This document shows positions 2,791 to 53,726 of a stretch of 64,000 nt of DNA, in pieces. A model generated the notes under the pieces. The model saw only the letters and a list, made by a program, of their open reading frames with translations, had not been told where the DNA came from and ran no database searches. Each line of letters begins with the position of its first letter. Position 1 is the stretch's first letter. The translations under genes were made by a program, and so were the position numbers. Source of the DNA: an uncultured Candidatus Saccharibacteria bacterium (GTDB taxonomy: Bacteria; Patescibacteriota; Minisyncoccia; Phycocordibacterales; PALSA-1337); assembly GCA_964629235.1 (NCBI GenBank), contig CAZVQB010000001.1, positions 4,431 to 68,430 of the forward strand. The letters run 5' to 3'.

Positions 2791-3627
2791 ATGAAGATAG
2801 GACGTTTGAGTACCTTACAATCAGCAAAGTATTTACAAAAGAAAAAAAAGCAAAGAATATTAACTATCACTATTTATTCTATCGCTTCGCTTATTGTAAT
2901 ACTTGCTATTCTTTTTTCTTTTAAACTATCATTTTTAAGAATCACAAATATTAGTGTAAATGATACATTAAACATCGAATCAGAAGAGATAAAAAATGAT
3001 GTTCTCGATATGATTTCTGGGAATTATTTTTTCTTTATTCCTAAAGATAGCTATTTCTTTTTATCTAAAGAAAAAATAAAAAATAAAATTGTAGACGATT
3101 TTAAAAAGATCAATACTATAGAAATAAAGAATAAAGGAATAACAGGCTTAGAAATAGAAATTACTGAAAGGCAACCTGAGGTTATGATTTGTGATGGATT
3201 TAGAGAAGATGAAGAAGGGGAACACTGCTCTTTTGCTGATAAGCAAGGAATAATTTTTGAAAAAGTGGCTACTAGTTCTGATAAGATTTATTTTAAATAT
3301 TATTCAAGTAATGAAATAAATCAAGATAAATTCATTCAATTACAAAACTTTGTTAAAAATGTAGAAAATTCAGGTATAATAGCTACAGGATTGCTTTTGA
3401 GTGAGGATGGTAGCTATGAATTGTATATAAAAAATGTAGACCAAAGTACTGCTGTCGTCTATTTTGACGATAGGACTAGTCTAGATAAAGTAGTTTCAAA
3501 TCTCTCTGTTTTTTGGAAAAATTCGCTAAATAAAAAAATAGGTTCGGATTTAATACCGAATTTTGAGTATATCAATCTACGTTTTGGTAACAACATTTTC
3601 TACCATATTAAGAATAATAAGGAATGA
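2791..3627 (+). CDS. FtsQ/DivIB-like cell division protein (single N-terminal TM + POTRA-like region)
   Basis: An N-terminal basic stretch and TM helix are followed by an ITNISVNDTLNIESEEI...IEITERQPEVMI segment resembling the FtsQ POTRA domain. The call is weak. Confidence 0.4.
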   Translation: MKIGRLSTLQSAKYLQKKKKQRILTITIYSIASLIVILAILFSFKLSFLRITNISVNDTLNIESEEIKNDVLDMISGNYFFFIPKDSYFFLSKEKIKNKIVDDFKKINTIEIKNKGITGLEIEITERQPEVMICDGFREDEEGEHCSFADKQGIIFEKVATSSDKIYFKYYSSNEINQDKFIQLQNFVKNVENSGIIATGLLLSEDGSYELYIKNVDQSTAVVYFDDRTSLDKVVSNLSVFWKNSLNKKIGSDLIPNFEYINLRFGNNIFYHIKNNKE

Positions 3628-4637
3628 TAAAAGTCTACTACTCGATGTTAAAAGCTTGTATTTGCGGAGCTATTATTGCTTTCGCTTTTATTTTCTTGCA
3701 GGACTATTTATCAAAAAATTTTGGTAAAAATACAATAAAAGTATCTAATTCAAAAACAGTTAATGAATCTCAGTTGGCATTGGCTACGATACCACATACA
3801 GCAATTCTTGAAGAAGCCGATCAAGATCCATCTTTTGTATCTAGATTTTCCCGTGTTTTTATCTATTCTGCTGATAATGGTAAAGAAGTTATAGAAAGTG
3901 CAAAAACCTCTTTAGCAAGAACAACTACTGCACGGAAAATTTCAGCGAAATCTTATGTAGTAATCGATCTAGATCGAAACGCGATTTTGCTTGAAAAGAA
4001 TCCTGAAAAGGCTTTGCCGATCGCTTCAATCACTAAGCTTGTAACAGCAGTCGTGGTGAAAAAACTCCTTAATCAAGATGAAACAATTACTATAACTAGT
4101 AGAGCTCTACTTACTTATGGTAATGAAGCATGGCTTAAGGAAGGCGAAAAATTAAAAGTTAGCGAATTAATGTACCCACTACTTATGGTATCAAGTAATG
4201 ATGCATCTGAAGCTTTAGCAGGTTCATATAAAAAGGGCAGAAAAGAATTCATTAAAGAAATGAATAATTGGGTAAATAGTATTGGAGCATATAGAACGTA
4301 TTTTGATGACCCGTCTGGGCTTTCAAATAAAAATGTTTCAACATCAAAAGATATTTCTATAATAATAAAATGGATTATAGAAAATGAACCAGATATTTTT
4401 AAAATTACTGCTCAGAAATCAAAATCAATACGATTCCATACTTGGACAAACCCGACTCATTTCCTAAACTTATCATCATATGCTGGTGGAAAAAATGGAT
4501 ATACTTTTGAGGCGAATAGAACAAGTGTTGCATTGTTCAAATTAGGTAAAGCAAATAAGCTTTATGGAATAATTTTACTTGGTAGTTCAAATAGAGATAG
4601 TGATATATTGGATTTGCTAGAAGAGGCTTTGAGGTAG
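3624..4637 (+). CDS. D-alanyl-D-alanine carboxypeptidase (peptidase S11, PBP5-like)
   Basis: SxxK motif (ASITK), SxN motif (VSSND) and KTG-like region. The start overlaps the upstream gene by 4 nt. Confidence 0.65.
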   Translation: MIKVYYSMLKACICGAIIAFAFIFLQDYLSKNFGKNTIKVSNSKTVNESQLALATIPHTAILEEADQDPSFVSRFSRVFIYSADNGKEVIESAKTSLARTTTARKISAKSYVVIDLDRNAILLEKNPEKALPIASITKLVTAVVVKKLLNQDETITITSRALLTYGNEAWLKEGEKLKVSELMYPLLMVSSNDASEALAGSYKKGRKEFIKEMNNWVNSIGAYRTYFDDPSGLSNKNVSTSKDISIIIKWIIENEPDIFKITAQKSKSIRFHTWTNPTHFLNLSSYAGGKNGYTFEANRTSVALFKLGKANKLYGIILLGSSNRDSDILDLLEEALR

Positions 4638-4650
4638 TAGTATTCAATAC

Positions 4651-5634
4651 ATGTCAAAAAGTGTTAATAAACAGAGTTCAAATCTATGGGAAAAGCTCAA
4701 AAAACCCATATTTGTCATAGCTCCTATGGCAAATGTGACAGATACAGCATTCCGCTCAATGTTTGCAAAATACGGCAAACCAGACGTTATGTGGACTGAA
4801 TTCGTATCAGCAGATGGGCTATGTTCTCCTGGTAAGAAAATGCTTTTGCGTGATCTAGAATATTCTGAGAATGAGAGACCAATAGTTGCTCAACTTTTTA
4901 CTGGTCATCCAGACAAGATGTTTGAAGCTGCGAAGCTAGTCGAGAGTCTTGGTTTTGATGGTGTAGATATAAACATGGGTTGTCCTGATAGAGCAGTAGA
5001 GAAACAGGGTTCAGGTGCTGGTCATATAAAAGATCCAGAAAATGCAAAAAAAGTTTTGGAAGCAGCAAGAGCAGGTGCACCGAATATTCCAATATCTATT
5101 AAGACAAGAATTGGTTATAACAAAGTTGAGATTGATACTTGGATTAGATTTCTTTTGGAACAAAAGTTACCAGCTTTAACAGTTCATCTAAGAACAAGAA
5201 AAGAAATGTCAGATGTTCCTGCACATTGGGAGCTTATGAATAAAATTGTTAAATTAAGAGATGAGATTTCACCAAAGACATTGATAATAGGGAATGGAGA
5301 TGTATTGAGTATCGAGCATGGTAAAAAGTTAATAGAAGAAACAGGTTGTGATGGTGTTATGGTTGGCCGTGGAATATTCGGGAATCCTTGGTTTTTTTCT
5401 GGAAAAGTTTTGGCAGACATTTCACCCAAAGATCGATTAAACGTGATGCTTGAACATGCAAAAGCTTTTGATAAAAAACTAGGTGATGTGAAGAATTTTG
5501 CAATAATGAAAAAACATTTTAAAGCTTATGTTTCAGGGTGGGATGGGGCAAAAGAATTGCGAGTAAAACTCATGGAGACAGAAAATATACAAGATGTGGA
5601 TAAAGTAGTTAAAGAATACTTGAAAAATATTTAA
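4651..5634 (+). CDS. dus: tRNA-dihydrouridine synthase
   Basis: Dus family motifs FVIAPMANVTD and VDINMGCP in a TIM-barrel FMN enzyme; 327 aa. Confidence 0.8.
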   Translation: MSKSVNKQSSNLWEKLKKPIFVIAPMANVTDTAFRSMFAKYGKPDVMWTEFVSADGLCSPGKKMLLRDLEYSENERPIVAQLFTGHPDKMFEAAKLVESLGFDGVDINMGCPDRAVEKQGSGAGHIKDPENAKKVLEAARAGAPNIPISIKTRIGYNKVEIDTWIRFLLEQKLPALTVHLRTRKEMSDVPAHWELMNKIVKLRDEISPKTLIIGNGDVLSIEHGKKLIEETGCDGVMVGRGIFGNPWFFSGKVLADISPKDRLNVMLEHAKAFDKKLGDVKNFAIMKKHFKAYVSGWDGAKELRVKLMETENIQDVDKVVKEYLKNI

Positions 5635-5639
5635 TGCGG

Positions 5640-6106
5640 GTGTAATCTTTTAGAAGATTAATCATCACATCGTCTATGTGATGCTGTACCTCTGGTTCAG
5701 TTAGCTCGATAGCTATTGATCGTCAACCGAGAATCCTTAACAAAGGACAATAGGTGAAAACAAATCAATACTGCGTGGCATATCATGGCTCCCCGCCATC
5801 GTGTCACGTTCTCTCCCGCCGATTCGTGTTCCCCTGCGTTCCCCTCGCCACCTCGTGAAGGTTTGGTTCGACGGCTTCTTGGAAGCCTCGCGACAAACTA
5901 TGAGTAGTGCCAACTACTCAGGCTGATGATAGAGAAAACAAAGGATATAGTTCTCAACTAGATGAGATAATGGATGTATTGGCAAATACATAGCGCTAGC
6001 CTGCTTTAGCTTAAAAAATAGCCTGTTTTTTAAAAATAAAGTTTTGTTGATGAAGATTAGTGCTCATCGTCTCTATCGCACCCTCCAAGTGGAGGGTGCT
6101 TTTTTA
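5640..6106 (+). ncRNA. GC-elevated structured ncRNA candidate upstream of dnaX (class unresolved: tmRNA/RNase P/SRP-like)
   Basis: About 460 nt with no credible ORF and much higher GC than the flanks, with C-rich/G-rich tracts (ctcccgcc, tcccctgcgttcccctcgccacc). A GGTTCGACGG motif is present. The element ends in a strong intrinsic terminator (gcaccctcc-aagt-ggagggtgc + T6) at 6078-6106, immediately 5-prime of dnaX. Confidence 0.35.
6078..6106 (+). terminator. intrinsic terminator (9-bp GC stem + T-run)
   Basis: gcaccctccaagtggagggtgctttttt. Confidence 0.75.
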
Positions 6107-6118
6107 TTTATGATATAA

Positions 6119-7201
6119 TTGATGTATTATATTTCAGTTATGTCAGACAAAAATTCTACAAATCCAAAATCCTCTTCAGTTTTATATAGGAAATACAGAC
6201 CATACAATTGGTCTGACGTTGTTGGGCAAGATCATATAATATCTGTTTTAGAGAATTCTATTAAACTTGATAAGATCGCTCACGCATATCTTTTTTCTGG
6301 TAGTAGAGGCACGGGTAAGACCTCTATTGCTCGTATATTCGCTCGTGCACTTGGTGTAAGTGACAATGATGTATATGAGATGGATGCAGCTTCAAATCGC
6401 GGTATAGACGATATACGAGAGATTCGTGATGGTGTAAGTGTTCTACCTTTTGAATCAAAATATAAAGTCTATATCATAGATGAAGTACACATGCTTACAA
6501 AAGAAGCATTCAATGCTTTGTTAAAGACTTTGGAAGAACCTCCAGCACATGCGATTTTTATCCTAGCTACAACTGAGACTGATAAAATTCCTGAGACGGT
6601 TCTTTCTCGATGTCAGATTTTTAGTTTTAAAAAGCCGAATAGGGAAGTATTAAAGACTTTGGTAAATAAAATAGCTAAGAAAGAAGGATTCACTATAGAT
6701 ACTGGTGTTGCTGATCTTATCGGTTTACTTGGAGATGGATCTTTTAGAGATACTTTGGGAATATTACAAAAAGTTATAAGTTCATCTTCTGATAAAAAGA
6801 TTTCAATGAAGGAAGTTGAAGAGATAACTGGAGCTCCAAGAGGGGAGTTGGTAAATAATTTTATATCTTCGCTAGCTTATGGTGATAAGGATCAAGCTTT
6901 TTCAATAATATTAAAAGTAAAAGAAGCAAATATTTCAATAAAGACATTTATTTCATTGATTCTAGAAAAAATTAGAATAATTTTAATTCTAAAGAATGTA
7001 AATTCTATATCATCAGTTGAATCGTTGAAACAGAGTGTATCAGAAGATGATTGGGTTATTTTGGAAAAGATTTCAAAAGATGAAAAAAGTAAAGTAGGAT
7101 TAAGTATGCTAAGAGAATTGTTGAAGGCTTATGATTTGACTTCCTATTCTTATATTGAGACTTTGCCTCTAGAAATAGCTATTGTTGACATAGTTTTATA
7201 G
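6119..7201 (+). CDS. dnaX: DNA polymerase III subunit gamma/tau (short form)
   Basis: AAA+ clamp-loader motifs (GSRGTGKTSIARIFARAL, SRC motif LSRCQIF); only 360 aa. Confidence 0.85.
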   Translation: MMYYISVMSDKNSTNPKSSSVLYRKYRPYNWSDVVGQDHIISVLENSIKLDKIAHAYLFSGSRGTGKTSIARIFARALGVSDNDVYEMDAASNRGIDDIREIRDGVSVLPFESKYKVYIIDEVHMLTKEAFNALLKTLEEPPAHAIFILATTETDKIPETVLSRCQIFSFKKPNREVLKTLVNKIAKKEGFTIDTGVADLIGLLGDGSFRDTLGILQKVISSSSDKKISMKEVEEITGAPRGELVNNFISSLAYGDKDQAFSIILKVKEANISIKTFISLILEKIRIILILKNVNSISSVESLKQSVSEDDWVILEKISKDEKSKVGLSMLRELLKAYDLTSYSYIETLPLEIAIVDIVL

Positions 7202-7204
7202 CGT

Positions 7205-7428
7205 GATACTATTCTGTGGACGGGTTCCTTAAATATTATGAAGCATATTATCATTGCTCGGCGTATCGGAGGAAAGCCGGAGAGAGTCGTGAGGTTGATC
7301 GAGATTTCGACACCCCCACCGAACAACGCAGTCGTGATCAATGACCACTGGAAACACAGGGTCATTCGACAAGGCACATAAGAGTCGCCAAACAGCCCTG
7401 TACGTACTATACGTACAGGGTCTTTTTT
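7205..7428 (+). ncRNA. structured ncRNA candidate downstream of dnaX (contains GAGGAAAGCCGGAG; class unresolved)
   Basis: About 220 nt GC-elevated ORF-less segment. It ends in an intrinsic terminator (ccctgtacgta-ctat-acgtacaggg + T-run, 7396-7428). Its motif tcGGAGGAAAGcCGGag resembles the RNase P P4 strand GAGGAAAGUCCGG and SRP domain IV purine-rich motifs, but the element is too short for a typical RNase P RNA. Confidence 0.3.
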
Positions 7429-7439
7429 CCACAATTTTA

Positions 7440-7695
7440 TTTGAAATCAGATTTGGGTTGTGATAATCTAGATTTTGGCTAGTTAATGACTCAAACCTAT
7501 GAATAAAGGTACCGTATTGCATCACCGAATCGGTCAAACCGATTCAATGCGCAAAAACAGGCGGAAGAAGGGATATACTCTTCCTGTCGGAATCAGACGT
7601 CATATGAGGAAGAGTTCTGAGGAAGGAGGTGAACACAAGTAGTGTTTGAAGAGTTCATCGTTCAATCCCCGAGTACATGTACTCGGGGATTTTGT
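7440..7695 (+). ncRNA. second possible small RNA / leader with its own terminator
   Basis: Purine-rich repeats (ggaagaaggg, gaggaagag, gaggaaggagg) are followed by a hairpin atccccgagtacatgtactcggggat + TTTGT at 7665-7695. No convincing ORF is present. Confidence 0.2.
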
Positions 7696-7736
7696 ATACT
7701 TGAGTTTATCTCGTTTTTAATGTATTTTAATAGTAT

Positions 7737-7810
7737 TGCGGGATCGTATAATGGTAGTACAGCGGCCTTTGAAGCCGTGAATCTTGGTTCGATTCCAAGT
7801 CCCGCAGCCA
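7737..7810 (+). tRNA. tRNA-Gln (anticodon TTG)
   Basis: Manual fold: acceptor TGCGGGA/TCCCGCA (7/7 pairs), anticodon stem-loop GCGGC-CTTTGAA-GCCGT with anticodon TTG, T-arm CTTGG-TTCGATT-CCAAG, encoded CCA. Total length 74 nt. Confidence 0.85.
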
Positions 7811-7916
7811 ACATGAGCTAGCTCAAAGATAGCTAGTTTACAAACAAAAACACCTCTTAAATTTGAAAGGCGTTTTTGTTGTTTTATATTGCAACAAAAT
7901 ATGCCATAATCTTTAT

Positions 7917-12401: not shown

Positions 12402-12419
12402 AATCTTTCTACCCCCTCT
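12391..12419. terminator. perfect 12-bp palindrome hairpin spanning both convergent stop codons (bidirectional terminator candidate)
   Basis: AGAGGGGGTAGA-atctt-TCTACCCCCTCT. The left arm encodes the ...KRG* end of GT2 and the right arm (reverse complement) encodes the ...KRG* end of the TMPK-like gene. Confidence 0.6.
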
Positions 12420-12972
12420 TGATGATCTTGAGTATTTCGTTGACGGCGTTTTGAGGACCATCGACGGTATCGTCAATATGGTGTTGTATTCGTTTTTTAA
12501 ATTCCACAAGGCACCGACGCTCCATCTCTTGTCGAAGATTGAATTTCTCCATGTCCTTGACTGGTCCACCACGGCTGTAAAGTCGTTGTTGTCGCTTTTC
12601 TTCGTCACAAACTATCAGGAAAACATAGTCCGGCATGCGACAAAGGTGCTCGAAAGTTTCCTTGATATCGAGCCCATACACTGTGTGATAGCATATAGTC
12701 GACCAGATGTACTTATCACAGACAACGCTTTGGGTTTCCAGGGTCCTGCTAATCTCCCAGGAGGCATGTGCCACCGAAGAGAGATAAAACAAAAATCTGG
12801 ATCCTAGCGAAAGCCTGAGATCAGCCTCTTCCCGCATCTTACTGAATGGTGCGGGGGGAGTGGCGTAGTACTTGGCTGGTAGTTGTTGAGCCAACATCTT
12901 GGAAACTTCCGTCTTGCCGCTACCAGAAATACCTTCGATCACAATGAACAAGTTTGGATTTTTCTGATCCAT
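12409..12972 (-). CDS. thymidylate-kinase-like P-loop nucleotide kinase (GC-rich, likely horizontally acquired)
   Basis: Walker A motif FIVIEGISGSGKTEV and a DRY-equivalent CDKYIW; 187 aa. Local GC is roughly 45-48% against ~30% in neighbouring genes. Confidence 0.55.
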   Translation of the reverse strand: MDQKNPNLFIVIEGISGSGKTEVSKMLAQQLPAKYYATPPAPFSKMREEADLRLSLGSRFLFYLSSVAHASWEISRTLETQSVVCDKYIWSTICYHTVYGLDIKETFEHLCRMPDYVFLIVCDEEKRQQRLYSRGGPVKDMEKFNLRQEMERRCLVEFKKRIQHHIDDTVDGPQNAVNEILKIIKRG

Positions 12973-15675: not shown

Positions 15676-15837
15676 ATGAAAAAAGCTCTTACTGCTATCG
15701 GGATGTTGTATGTTCTTGTTGGTATGTTCATTGCAACCGATCTCAACCCTTTGCTTTACTGGAGCTGGTATCGTAACGGTGTGAACGAGTTGCTCAATAC
15801 CATGTTTAGTATTTATCCAGCATTACCACTTCTGTAG
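15676..15837 (+). CDS. small (53 aa) hydrophobic membrane peptide
   Basis: MKKALTAIGMLYVLVGMFIATDLNPLLYWSWYRNG... with an AGGA-like RBS upstream and a terminator hairpin (aaaccacc...ggtggttttt) ~90 nt downstream. It is below the ORF-track size cutoff. Confidence 0.3.
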   Translation: MKKALTAIGMLYVLVGMFIATDLNPLLYWSWYRNGVNELLNTMFSIYPALPLL

Positions 15838-30615: not shown

Positions 30616-30684
30616 ATATAAACAAAAGCCGGCCTAGCCGGTTTTTGTTTTGTGGGTTATCATGGATATAGAAAGGAGGTAATT

Positions 30685-30796
30685 GTGAAAATCAAATTAT
30701 CTAGAATATTGGCTCCATTGAATCCCGACACAGCTATTGGTATCATCATGCTTTGTATTATCTGCACAATCATATATGCAGTGTTTTATTTTTGAT
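30685..30796 (+). CDS. 37-aa hydrophobic micropeptide with strong RBS
   Basis: AAAGGAGGtaattGTG start. Product MKIKLSRILAPLNPDTAIGIIMLCIICTIIYAVFYF. Bracketed by terminators at 30626-30648 and 30807-30846. Confidence 0.35.
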
Positions 30797-50378: not shown

Positions 50379-50513
50379 CGCAAAACCGACCTCCGTAAGG
50401 ACAAGTCGGTTTTCTTTTATACCTGAAAGCTAATAACCGAAATATTGAGAGAATTTAACTAGATTTATTTTTGACTTTATATTCTACTCGTGTTATAAGT
50501 AAATAAACGAATT
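50379..50513 (+). repeat. 135-bp direct repeat copy 1: GNRA-hairpin terminator + TTGACT-17-TATAAG promoter
   Basis: About 94% identical to 51147-51281. Hairpin aaaACCGACcUCC-GUAA-GGAcaaGUCGGUuuuc at 50382-50418. Promoter at 50471-50499. Confidence 0.8.
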
Positions 50514-51146: not shown

Positions 51147-51281
51147 CGCAAAACCGACCTCCGTAAGGACAAGTCGGTTTTCTTTTATACCTGAAAGCTA
51201 ATAACCGAAATATAGCGAGATTTTAACTAGATTTATTATTGACTTTATATTCTACTTGTGTTATAAATAAATAAGCAAATT
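51147..51281 (+). repeat. 135-bp direct repeat copy 2: terminator + TTGACT-17-TATAAA promoter
   Basis: Same module as 50379-50513. Promoter at 51238-51266, upstream of the 88-aa ORF. Confidence 0.8.
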
Positions 51282-53572: not shown

Positions 53573-53726
53573 ATTTTAATTTAGTTTATTTTTTAATTAC
53601 TTTACTTCCTCATAGAATTTATTGTATAATATGTAAGGCATATCAATACCAAATAGAAAGGAGGAAATATGTACGGCGAATAATAAATTTAGCGACGAAA
53701 TCAATTGAGAGTAGTCGCCTTTTCTT

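Follow-up and report, generated by a model that had tools for sequence, protein, structure and literature searches.

The 64-kb window analysed here is a stretch of contig CAZVQB010000001.1 from an uncultured Candidatus Saccharibacteria bacterium, and all positions refer to it unless another locus is named. The window is AT-rich, with a G+C content (GC) of 33.9%, and contains a dnaX gene flanked by three short GC-rich segments, which are the subject of this report. The local order is a peptidase S11 gene, dus, segment 1, dnaX, segment 2, segment 3, tRNA-Gln, and a NUDIX gene. Judged by the labels of the metagenome-assembled genomes that carry relatives of this dnaX (Candidatus Saccharibacteria, Taylorbacteria, Adlerbacteria, Paceibacterota, and ‘Patescibacteria group’), the host is a candidate-phyla-radiation (CPR) bacterium. 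Contigs from at least four samples, ERZ17987696, ERZ27283032 and SRR6837583 among them, carry identical copies of the region, and in these contigs no gene is called in any of the three segments.

An earlier note, made by eye from the sequence, described the segments (5640–6106, 7205–7428 and 7440–7695) as free of open reading frames (ORFs), as far above the local GC background, and as each ending in a rho-independent terminator; it proposed that they are reduced or divergent housekeeping RNAs or new small RNAs (sRNAs). The GC contrast is real. Segment 1 has 43.5% GC, and its inner stretch 5760–5930, at 55%, ranks in the top 0.03% of windows of its length, no stretch in the 64 kb being a greater GC outlier; segments 2 and 3 have 47.3% and 41.8% GC, placing them in the top 0.6% and top 4% of same-length windows, respectively. 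The terminators of segments 1 and 2 (6078–6099 and 7395–7421, both followed by T6) are as described, and the third is weaker, with only TTTT; all three hairpins sit on the + strand. The segments are not devoid of ORFs, as segments 2 and 3 each contain a 47-codon ATG-initiated ORF and segment 1 contains several ORFs of 34–41 codons. A promoter-like site, recognised by consensus match, precedes each segment, and the arrangement found ahead of segments 1 and 3, TTGAAA-17-TAATCT, has only these two matches in the window, at 5620 and 7441. The segments together with these signals are referred to below as units 1, 2 and 3 (Table 1).

Table 1. Features of the dnaX region, in window coordinates.
Feature	Position	Strand	Remarks
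Unit 1 promoter-like site, TTGAAA-17 nt-TAATCT	5620..5648	+	-35 hexamer within the last dus codons
Unit 1 variable GC/C-rich 5’ module	5650..5865	+	GC up to 0.64; most GC-rich DNA of the window
Small hairpin TCCTT/AAGGA with AAAGGA purine box	5734..5747	+	Box 6–7 nt before ORF start; read from sequence
34-codon ORF ‘MKTNQYCVAYHGSPPSCHVLSRRFVFPCVPLATS’	5754..5858	+	Candidate coding; start region conserved, peptide hypervariable
Unit 1 conserved core	5873..6106	+	Helices complementary in every allele despite differing sequence
Core helix H0	5873–5887	+	
Core helix H1	5901–5920	+	
Long-range helix P1	5929–5935 with 6070–6076	+	
Core helix H3	5952–5967	+	
Core helix H4	5974–5991	+	
Core helix H6	6049–6068	+	
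Unit 1 terminator	6078–6099, T-run 6100–6105	+	Consensus scan
Extended -10 of dnaX (TGATATAAT)	6111..6119	+	3’ of unit 1 terminator; read from sequence
dnaX	6140..7201	+	Anchor gene; 353 aa, DNA polymerase III gamma/tau; Pfam DNA_pol3_delta2 + AAA; named gamma/tau in sources
Unit 2 promoter-like site, TTGACA-16-TACTAT with TG	7185..7212	+	10/12 matches; overlaps dnaX end
Unit 2 predicted small-protein gene, 47 codons, MKHIIIARRIGGKPERVVRLIEISTPPPNNAVVINDHWKHRVIRQGT	7238..7381	+	Isoelectric point (pI) 11.7; ORF list, pN/pS, indels
Unit 2 terminator, 12-bp stem + T6	7395..7428	+	Stem invariant, loop variable in relatives
Unit 3 promoter-like site, TTGAAA-17-TAATCT; alternatively TGTGATAAT	7441..7469	+	Kept in L013, L016–L019, L026
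Unit 3 predicted small basic-protein gene, 47 codons, MNKGTVLHHRIGQTDSMRKNRRKKGYTLPVGIRRHMRKSSEEGGEHK	7499..7642	+	ORF list, pN/pS, synteny
Unit 3 terminator-like hairpin	7664..7693	+	Perfect 14-nt inverted repeat 7664–7691, TTTT then G
tRNA-Gln (UUG)	7737..7810	+	Right-hand boundary of the variable spacer; same tRNA downstream of dnaX in relatives

Two sets of related loci were available for comparison. A scan of genome collections yielded loci at 51–79% dnaX identity, and closer relatives were fetched by exact-protein look-ups, their dnaX proteins being 94% (L013), 91% (L016), 87% (L017), 98.6% (L018), 98.6% (L019) and 99% (L026) identical to that of the window; a metagenome scan with dnaX returned one locus only. 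In blastn comparisons, the three segments show no similarity to the relatives at 51–79% dnaX identity. The spacer between dnaX and tRNA-Gln measures several hundred bases in most of those loci and only 198 nt in L008, and there is no spacer between dus and dnaX, hence no segment 1, in L005, L006, L007, L012 and L025 (near 78–79% dnaX identity). Segment 1 is confined to the close clade, where it takes several allele forms. The window and L019 share a long allele (96.9% identical there), L026 has a second long form, L013 and L017 have a third form, and a short form in L016 and L018 is entirely missing the GC-rich 5’ 215 nt. The arrangement TTGAAA/TA(A/G)(T/G)CT before unit 1 recurs in L013, L016–L019 and L026.

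Comparison of these alleles reveals that the fold of the unit 1 core is conserved while the sequences of its helices change. H0 occurs as GGCTTC/GAAGCC, GATGGC/GCCATC and GGCTCC/GGAGTC or GGAGCC; H1 as TGAGTAGT/ACTACTCA, ATCAGTAGT/ACTACTGAT and CATCAGTAT/ATACTGATG; H3 as TCTCA/TGAGA, TCTCAA/TTGAGA and TCTCGG/CCGAGA; H4 as ATGTATT/AATACAT, ATGTTT/AAACAT and GTATGTC/GACGTAC; and H6 as GATGA/TCATC and GGTGA/TCACC. The long-range helix P1 has three variants, ATAGAGA/TCTCTAT, ATAGGAG/CTCCTAT and AGGGAA/TTCCCT. RNAalifold recovers P1 unprompted, with three consecutive compensatory pairs, and P1 reaches a pair probability of 0.93–0.98 in six of the seven alleles when each is folded separately. In alignment A9, 96% of cells pair, versus 33–56% with slid partners, and seven pairs have changed on both sides, these counts being limited to the four helices that MAFFT registers correctly (its registration of H0, H4 and the terminator is wrong). 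The shuffles average a covariation score of 0.158, and the observed score, 0.292, is reached by none of the 500. The covariation statistics for the core are suggestive rather than decisive.

The core does not read as a protein gene. Single-nucleotide indels at 5983, 6009 and 6032 separate the window from L019 (97% identical), and such indels inside the core between near-identical alleles indicate that it is not coding; ORFs passing through it also differ in frame and length among alleles. An nhmmer profile of the core matches no other place in the window and none of the loci at greater distance. A 14-nt complementarity between 5923–5936, which includes the 5’ strand of P1, and dnaX codons at 7003–7016 was considered as a target site and discarded, as it shows no covariation in relatives. 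Taken as a whole, the pattern makes it fairly probable that the unit 1 core is a lineage-restricted structured RNA candidate, the 3’ 240 nt most likely working either as an sRNA or as a structured 3’ module with a stabilising role. The earlier suggestion of new sRNAs survives for one segment, segment 1, where compensatory changes keep the fold of the 3’ 240 nt.

The 5’ module of unit 1 is far less constant. The version in the window is shared with L019, other sequence takes its place in L026, L013 and L017, and L016 and L018 have no module at all. Within it, the string GAATCCTTA(A/C)CAAAGGA is kept in L019, L026, L013 and L017, and the start RTG-AAA-ACN (‘MKT’) is kept in five alleles, including that of L023 (78% dnaX identity). 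The MKT peptides are 20–34 amino acids (aa) long, with many Cys, Ser, Pro, Gly and Ala residues. Another short frame in segment 1 ends in three stop codons at 5924–5932. It is conceivable that segment 1 is a small-protein mRNA, translated from the MKT frame (5754–5858) or from a frame at 5801–5926, with a long 3’ untranslated region (UTR) whose hairpins merely stabilise it. The retained start and purine box would suit this explanation, as would the 5801–5926 frame, in which five of seven changes relative to L019 are synonymous. It is nonetheless unlikely: all five changes in the MKT frame relative to L019 are non-synonymous, with neither length nor sequence conserved among alleles; the 5801–5926 frame lacks a plausible start and a canonical start context, shares sequence with H0 and H1, and is without an equivalent in the other alleles; and L016 and L018 retain the core without a conserved ORF.

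The position of segment 1 raises the alternative of a cis-acting leader or attenuator of dnaX, in which translation of the MKT frame, or a ligand or protein binding at the P1 domain, would determine whether the 6078–6099 terminator folds and hence whether transcription from the dus side continues into dnaX. The layout fits, with a short ORF, a P1-closed domain whose 3’ strand directly adjoins the terminator stem, and a terminator 34 nt before the dnaX ATG. However, in every locus, with or without unit 1, a TG-n-TA(T/C)AAT element stands 10–25 nt ahead of the dnaX ATG, and the fact that dnaX keeps its own -10 after the segment 1 terminator favors an independent unit over a dnaX leader. Moreover, relatives near 78–79% dnaX identity have no such leader at all, the short alleles lack the ORF, and no conserved antiterminator alternative was found by eye. 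A leader function is therefore quite improbable, and a separate sRNA-like transcript remains the preferred reading of unit 1.

Segments 2 and 3 are very likely small-protein genes, a prediction that follows from how their 47-codon ORFs evolve. In unit 2, an ATG-initiated frame of 47–60 codons is open in all six alleles, and relatives retain the -10 and the region of the start. Among five close alleles, the ratio of non-synonymous to synonymous change (pN/pS) is 0.21–0.37 in frame, versus 0.4–5.7 in the shifted frames, which contain up to four stops. Substitutions are in excess at third codon positions (for example, 3, 3 and 11, or 5, 3 and 12, at positions 1, 2 and 3), and length differences are of 3, 6 or 9 nt only. 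Two homologues, P0122 and P0123, are called as genes elsewhere. In two very large protein collections the homologues number two, both from this clade and one named ‘hypothetical protein’, and a profile search over 1.84 billion representatives returned P0122, P0123 and a repeat protein, P0124, only. The match to P0124 (E=7e-5) sums three weak stretches and is treated as probably due to chance. P0124 itself, which does not lie in the window, is a predicted protein of 200 aa with three 59-aa tandem repeats that weakly match IGGKP...TPPP of the unit 2 protein. Designed ‘Pizza’ beta-propellers from PDB were also considered as profile relatives and set aside, as no single stretch is significant; these matches do no more than hint that residues 31–47 resemble an NHL-type strand pair. 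The predicted unit 2 product is basic and probably rich in beta-strands.

Unit 3 behaves similarly. Relative to L016 and L018, it has four differences, all at third codon positions, of which three are synonymous and one changes Glu to Asp; its TAG stop is TAA in both. Relative to L017, 76 of 141 bases differ, and all 47 codons are open in both. In the more distant alleles, in which roughly half of the bases have changed, the in-frame pN/pS is 0.41–0.54, versus ~0.8–1.7 in the other frames, which contain two to five stops, and the seven alleles are open for 33–50 codons. Nine loci, L012 and L025 (78–79% dnaX identity) among them, carry the motif [LR]P[VR]G[IV][RKH]R, and in all nine no other unit separates the family from tRNA-Gln or from a 230-aa insertion described below; a homologue, P0121, is called as a gene elsewhere. 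Of the 47 residues of the predicted product, 13 are Lys or Arg (28%; pI 11.4), a composition that suggests nucleic-acid or ribosome binding. The hairpin that follows the ORF is absent from the consensus terminator scan, its U-tract being short, and the L019 allele has T5. Candidate peptides from the unit 2 and unit 3 products are IGGKPER, LIEISTPPPNNAVVINDHWK and GYTLPVGIR.

Neither ORF is preceded by a Shine-Dalgarno (SD) sequence. This is unremarkable because the ordinary genes of the window also lack one, with nearly none among the starts of 40 ORFs window-wide. A TATAAT-like box lies within 10–25 nt of the start codon of many window ORFs, as would be expected of mRNAs that are leaderless or have very short leaders. 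The high GC of segments 2 and 3 can be traced to their GC-rich terminator hairpins and to Arg/Gly/Pro-rich coding with GC-rich third positions, and not to the fold of a housekeeping RNA. At codon positions 1/2/3, GC is 0.50/0.40/0.60 in unit 2, 0.48/0.42/0.46 in unit 3 and 0.42/0.34/0.21 in dnaX, the excess at positions 1 and 2 arising from the Arg-, Gly- and Pro-rich composition.

It is very unlikely that segments 2 and 3 are instead structured non-coding sRNAs in which the 47-codon ORFs are incidental. Folding z-scores of -4.2 (segment 2) and -2.7 (segment 3), the atypical GC at third codon positions (GC3), and an SD-like string kept even outside ORFs would be in keeping with such RNAs, but purifying selection is specific to the frame, indels are in-frame only, and the ORFs are open in six or seven alleles. 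The double-changed pairs of segment 2 also all come from the divergent L013 row, except for one terminator loop-closing pair, and the RNAalifold covariation term for this segment is -1.24 kcal/mol, with the terminator alone being solid. The earlier note had itself raised decayed coding sequence as a finding that would count against RNA genes; coding is borne out for two of the three segments, and decay is not, the ORFs being intact. Decay, or a recent insertion of mobile or phage DNA, is accordingly given hardly any weight. The GC and GC3 unlike those of the host genome, the mosaic alleles between strains, and the variable 230-aa ORF beside tRNA-Gln in some loci would agree with it, but the intact ORFs are under purifying selection, 50,697 phage records yield no blastn match, no PHROG family is matched, the unit 2 protein has no IMG/VR relative, and no terminal repeats flank the units. 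The unit 3 family alignment is too variable for the viral scan.

Least credible of all is the proposal that the segments are housekeeping RNAs, with a transfer-messenger RNA (tmRNA) in segment 1, RNase P or signal recognition particle (SRP) RNA in segment 2, and 6S RNA somewhere among them. Its basis was the GC-rich, terminator-ended character of the segments, two short look-alike motifs, and the setting, as in Firmicutes the SRP RNA gene precedes dnaX. Both motifs are present (GGTTCGACGG at 5865–5874 and TCGGAGGAAAGCCGGAG at 7266–7282), but neither holds up as an RNA signature. First, GGTTCGACGG, read as a tmRNA-like box, lacks conservation: in other segment 1 alleles it aligns with TTTTGATGGC, ATTAACGGCT and TTCGGTGGCT; it is the 5’ flank of H0, covering the first two H0 bases, and the frames through this region vary in length and phase across alleles. 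Second, GGAGGAAAG, which lies within TCGGAGGAAAGCCGGAG and had been likened to RNase P and SRP motifs, consists of codons 10–15 (I-G-G-K-P-E) of the segment 2 ORF. Its GGAGGAAAGCCGG is the codon series GGA-GGA-AAG-CCG (Gly-Gly-Lys-Pro) of the 7238–7381 ORF, and the TCGGAGGAAAGCCGGAG codons have synonymous variants (ATT, GGG, GAA) in relatives. Beyond the motifs, segments 2 and 3 evolve as proteins, and segment 1 is gone from the five relatives in which dus abuts dnaX. Such an absence from relatives near 78–79% dnaX identity does not suit an essential RNA.

Searches with RNA models agree. Rfam 15 at gathering thresholds identifies tRNA-Gln and nothing else in the whole window. With permissive filters and E≤10 on 5500–7900, the extra matches are terminator look-alikes far under the cutoffs; those to PyrG leader (27 bits versus a cutoff of 65), ClpQY promoter, sau-6072 and CRISPR-DR were rejected as chance. 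In eight related loci, cmscan at E≤1 reports only tRNAs and two sub-threshold sRNA matches. ARAGORN finds tRNA-Gln only in the window, with no tmRNA, standard or permuted, so that both searches proposed in the earlier note, Infernal with Rfam models and ARAGORN for a permuted tmRNA, came back negative. By family, the tRNA-like domain of tmRNA was not found by ARAGORN in the window, by the Rfam tmRNA clan at E≤10 on 5500–7900, or at E≤1 in the eight loci; there is no RF00010/RF00011 match for RNase P RNA at E≤10, and no RF00169/RF01854 match for SRP RNA at E≤10 in the window or at E≤1 in the eight related loci. No RF00013 match for 6S RNA exists at E≤10, which is a weaker test given the limited sensitivity of Rfam for divergent 6S; what segment 1 conserves is several short hairpins inside a junction that P1 closes, unlike the single long hairpin of 6S. 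A by-eye reading of segment 1 as a standard or permuted tmRNA was likewise abandoned, with neither acceptor nor T-arm recognised. As far as these tools reach, identity of the segments with tmRNA, RNase P RNA, SRP RNA or 6S RNA is rejected.

The distribution of alleles provides a further view of the locus. Allele type and dnaX relatedness are discordant: L018 (98.6% dnaX identity) has the short segment 1, and L019 has a divergent segment 3 allele. Since allele type does not follow dnaX relatedness, the cassettes appear to have been exchanged by recombination. Two further observations concern the dnaX to tRNA-Gln spacer. A 230-aa ORF lies between the unit 3 terminator and tRNA-Gln in L018 (3020–3712), L019 (~3510–4200) and L021 (3864–4556) and extends into the 5’ end of the tRNA; the window is without it, and only a 3’ remnant is left in L013 and L017. 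By eye it was taken for a homing endonuclease, which was dropped as there is no significant Pfam match, and it is a variable insertion beside the tRNA. In L005 (5048–5350), L006 (5024–5320) and L012 (3518–3830), the unit 2 slot holds a different ORF of 50–53 codons (MNGKDE.../MNGMDD...) with in-frame indels, followed by GAAGGAGGTGACAAAAG in the 3’ UTR and then a terminator. The slot after dnaX is thus reused by unrelated small genes.

Considered together, units 2 and 3 as unannotated small-protein genes and unit 1 as an sRNA-like transcript with a conserved 3’ fold form the likely explanation of the locus. In this model, dnaX would be bordered by three short transcription units, autonomous and monocistronic, each with an apparent promoter and terminator of its own. 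Unit 1, between dus and dnaX, would give a transcript of ~450 nt, the last 240 nt of which would form two hairpins, a multi-hairpin domain closed by P1, and then the terminator; an optional 5’ module would carry the short, fast-evolving ‘MKT...’ frame. Units 2 and 3, between dnaX and tRNA-Gln, would each encode a 47-codon small protein.

Several observations weigh against this model. The unit 1 covariation rests on only 4–5 independent alleles and has low statistical power, and H0, H4 and the terminator were registered by hand. The promoters are consensus matches only, the unit 1 -10 (TAATCT/TAGGCT) being weak. At 0.60 and 0.46, the GC3 of the two ORFs is well removed from the 0.21–0.24 of dus and dnaX; plain vertical coding evolution does not account for this gap, which may stem from a foreign origin or from a further constraint at the RNA level. 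The unit 2 protein has no Pfam, NCBIfam, PHROG or convincing PDB relative, and its AlphaFold2 model is unusable, with a predicted local distance difference test (pLDDT) of 49.7 and three short strands predicted; the unit 3 protein has no relative in Pfam or NCBIfam (even at E≤10), in PHROG, or by sequence in PDB. Finally, AAGGAGGTGA at 7623–7632 encodes part of the C-terminal EEGGE (Glu-Glu-Gly-Gly-Glu) of the unit 3 protein, and RAAGGAGGTGA persists outside any ORF in L005, L006 and L012, and past an early stop in L013. Because this string survives outside ORFs, nucleotide-level selection may act on part of unit 3.

A more far-reaching set of interpretations is tentative, and somewhat less probable than its converse. 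It is possible that the unit 1 core represents a class of structured RNA not described before and limited to a single Patescibacteria clade; that the core, together with the Cys/Ser/Pro/Gly-rich ‘MKT...’ frame present in some alleles, is a dual-function RNA; and that the core and the two basic proteins make up a recombining, allele-shuffled island around dnaX and tRNA-Gln. If so, the island could serve the interaction between host and episymbiont, or the RNA and ribosome biology of reduced organisms.

Other small elements are scattered through the window. In each copy of a 135-nt direct repeat (50379–50513 and 51147–51281, 94% identical), a + strand ORF is preceded by a hairpin resembling a terminator and by a promoter-like stretch; the repeat looks like a duplicated intergenic control region. 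At 53657–53687 (+), a perfect SD (AGAAAGGAGGAAAT) is followed by a 4-codon mini-ORF, ATG TAC GGC GAA TAA TAA, on the strand opposite to its neighbours, in a genome whose ordinary genes have no SD. Two unlisted small hydrophobic ORFs with their own terminators lie at 30673–30796 (+) and 15676–15836 (+), the former with a strong SD (GAAAGGAGGTAATT-GTG). Small-gene cassettes are common in the window. A 187-aa ORF at 12409–12972 (-), with 50–56% GC in places and ~0.45 overall versus 34% in the genome, may be horizontally acquired.

The result alters no major open question. With it, a lineage in which small genes and RNAs have hardly been explored gains one candidate structured RNA and two small-protein families that are uncharacterised; the unit 3 family is syntenic with tRNA-Gln across the wider clade, and the shuffling of alleles around an essential gene marks a local recombination hotspot.

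Each unit has a counterpart among known systems that it resembles in part. Segment 1 is like tmRNA in that the 10-nt box GGTTCGACGG resembles GGAUUCGACGG of the tmRNA 5’ region and in its short frame with three stops; it differs in lacking a tRNA-like domain and any ARAGORN or Rfam match, and the box is not conserved. Small basic ribosome-associated proteins include bTHX, bS22 and Sra, and the unit 3 product, at ~47 aa and with its basic composition, is similar to these by composition only, with its gene beside a tRNA gene; unlike them, it matches none of their families in Pfam or NCBIfam at E≤10 and has no PDB relative. With dual-function sRNAs, represented by Staphylococcus RNAIII/hld, SgrS/SgrT and Bacillus SR1/SR1P, unit 1 shares the layout only: a short frame, a separate multi-hairpin body and its own terminator within a few hundred nt. 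It has no sequence or covariance-model similarity to them, and its peptide part is hypervariable and, being absent from the short alleles, dispensable.

The closest comparison is with short ORFs recovered in screens of GC-rich intergenic regions (IGRs) in AT-rich genomes, in which about a third of the unknown IGRs proved to be protein genes missing from the annotation and a quarter to be short ORFs (Stav et al. 2019, PMC6429828). As in those cases, units 2 and 3 are long GC-rich intergenic regions on an AT-rich background, terminator-ended, with a conserved frame and no structure beyond the terminator. They differ in having no ribosome-binding site, a usual state in this genome, in a GC3 far above that of the genome, and in the shuffling of their alleles among close strains. 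Units 2 and 3 are thus a classic false positive of GC-rich-IGR screens, and they serve as an example that GC-rich, terminator-ended islands of AT-rich CPR genomes that appear to be ORF-less are often missed small-protein genes, not hidden housekeeping RNAs.

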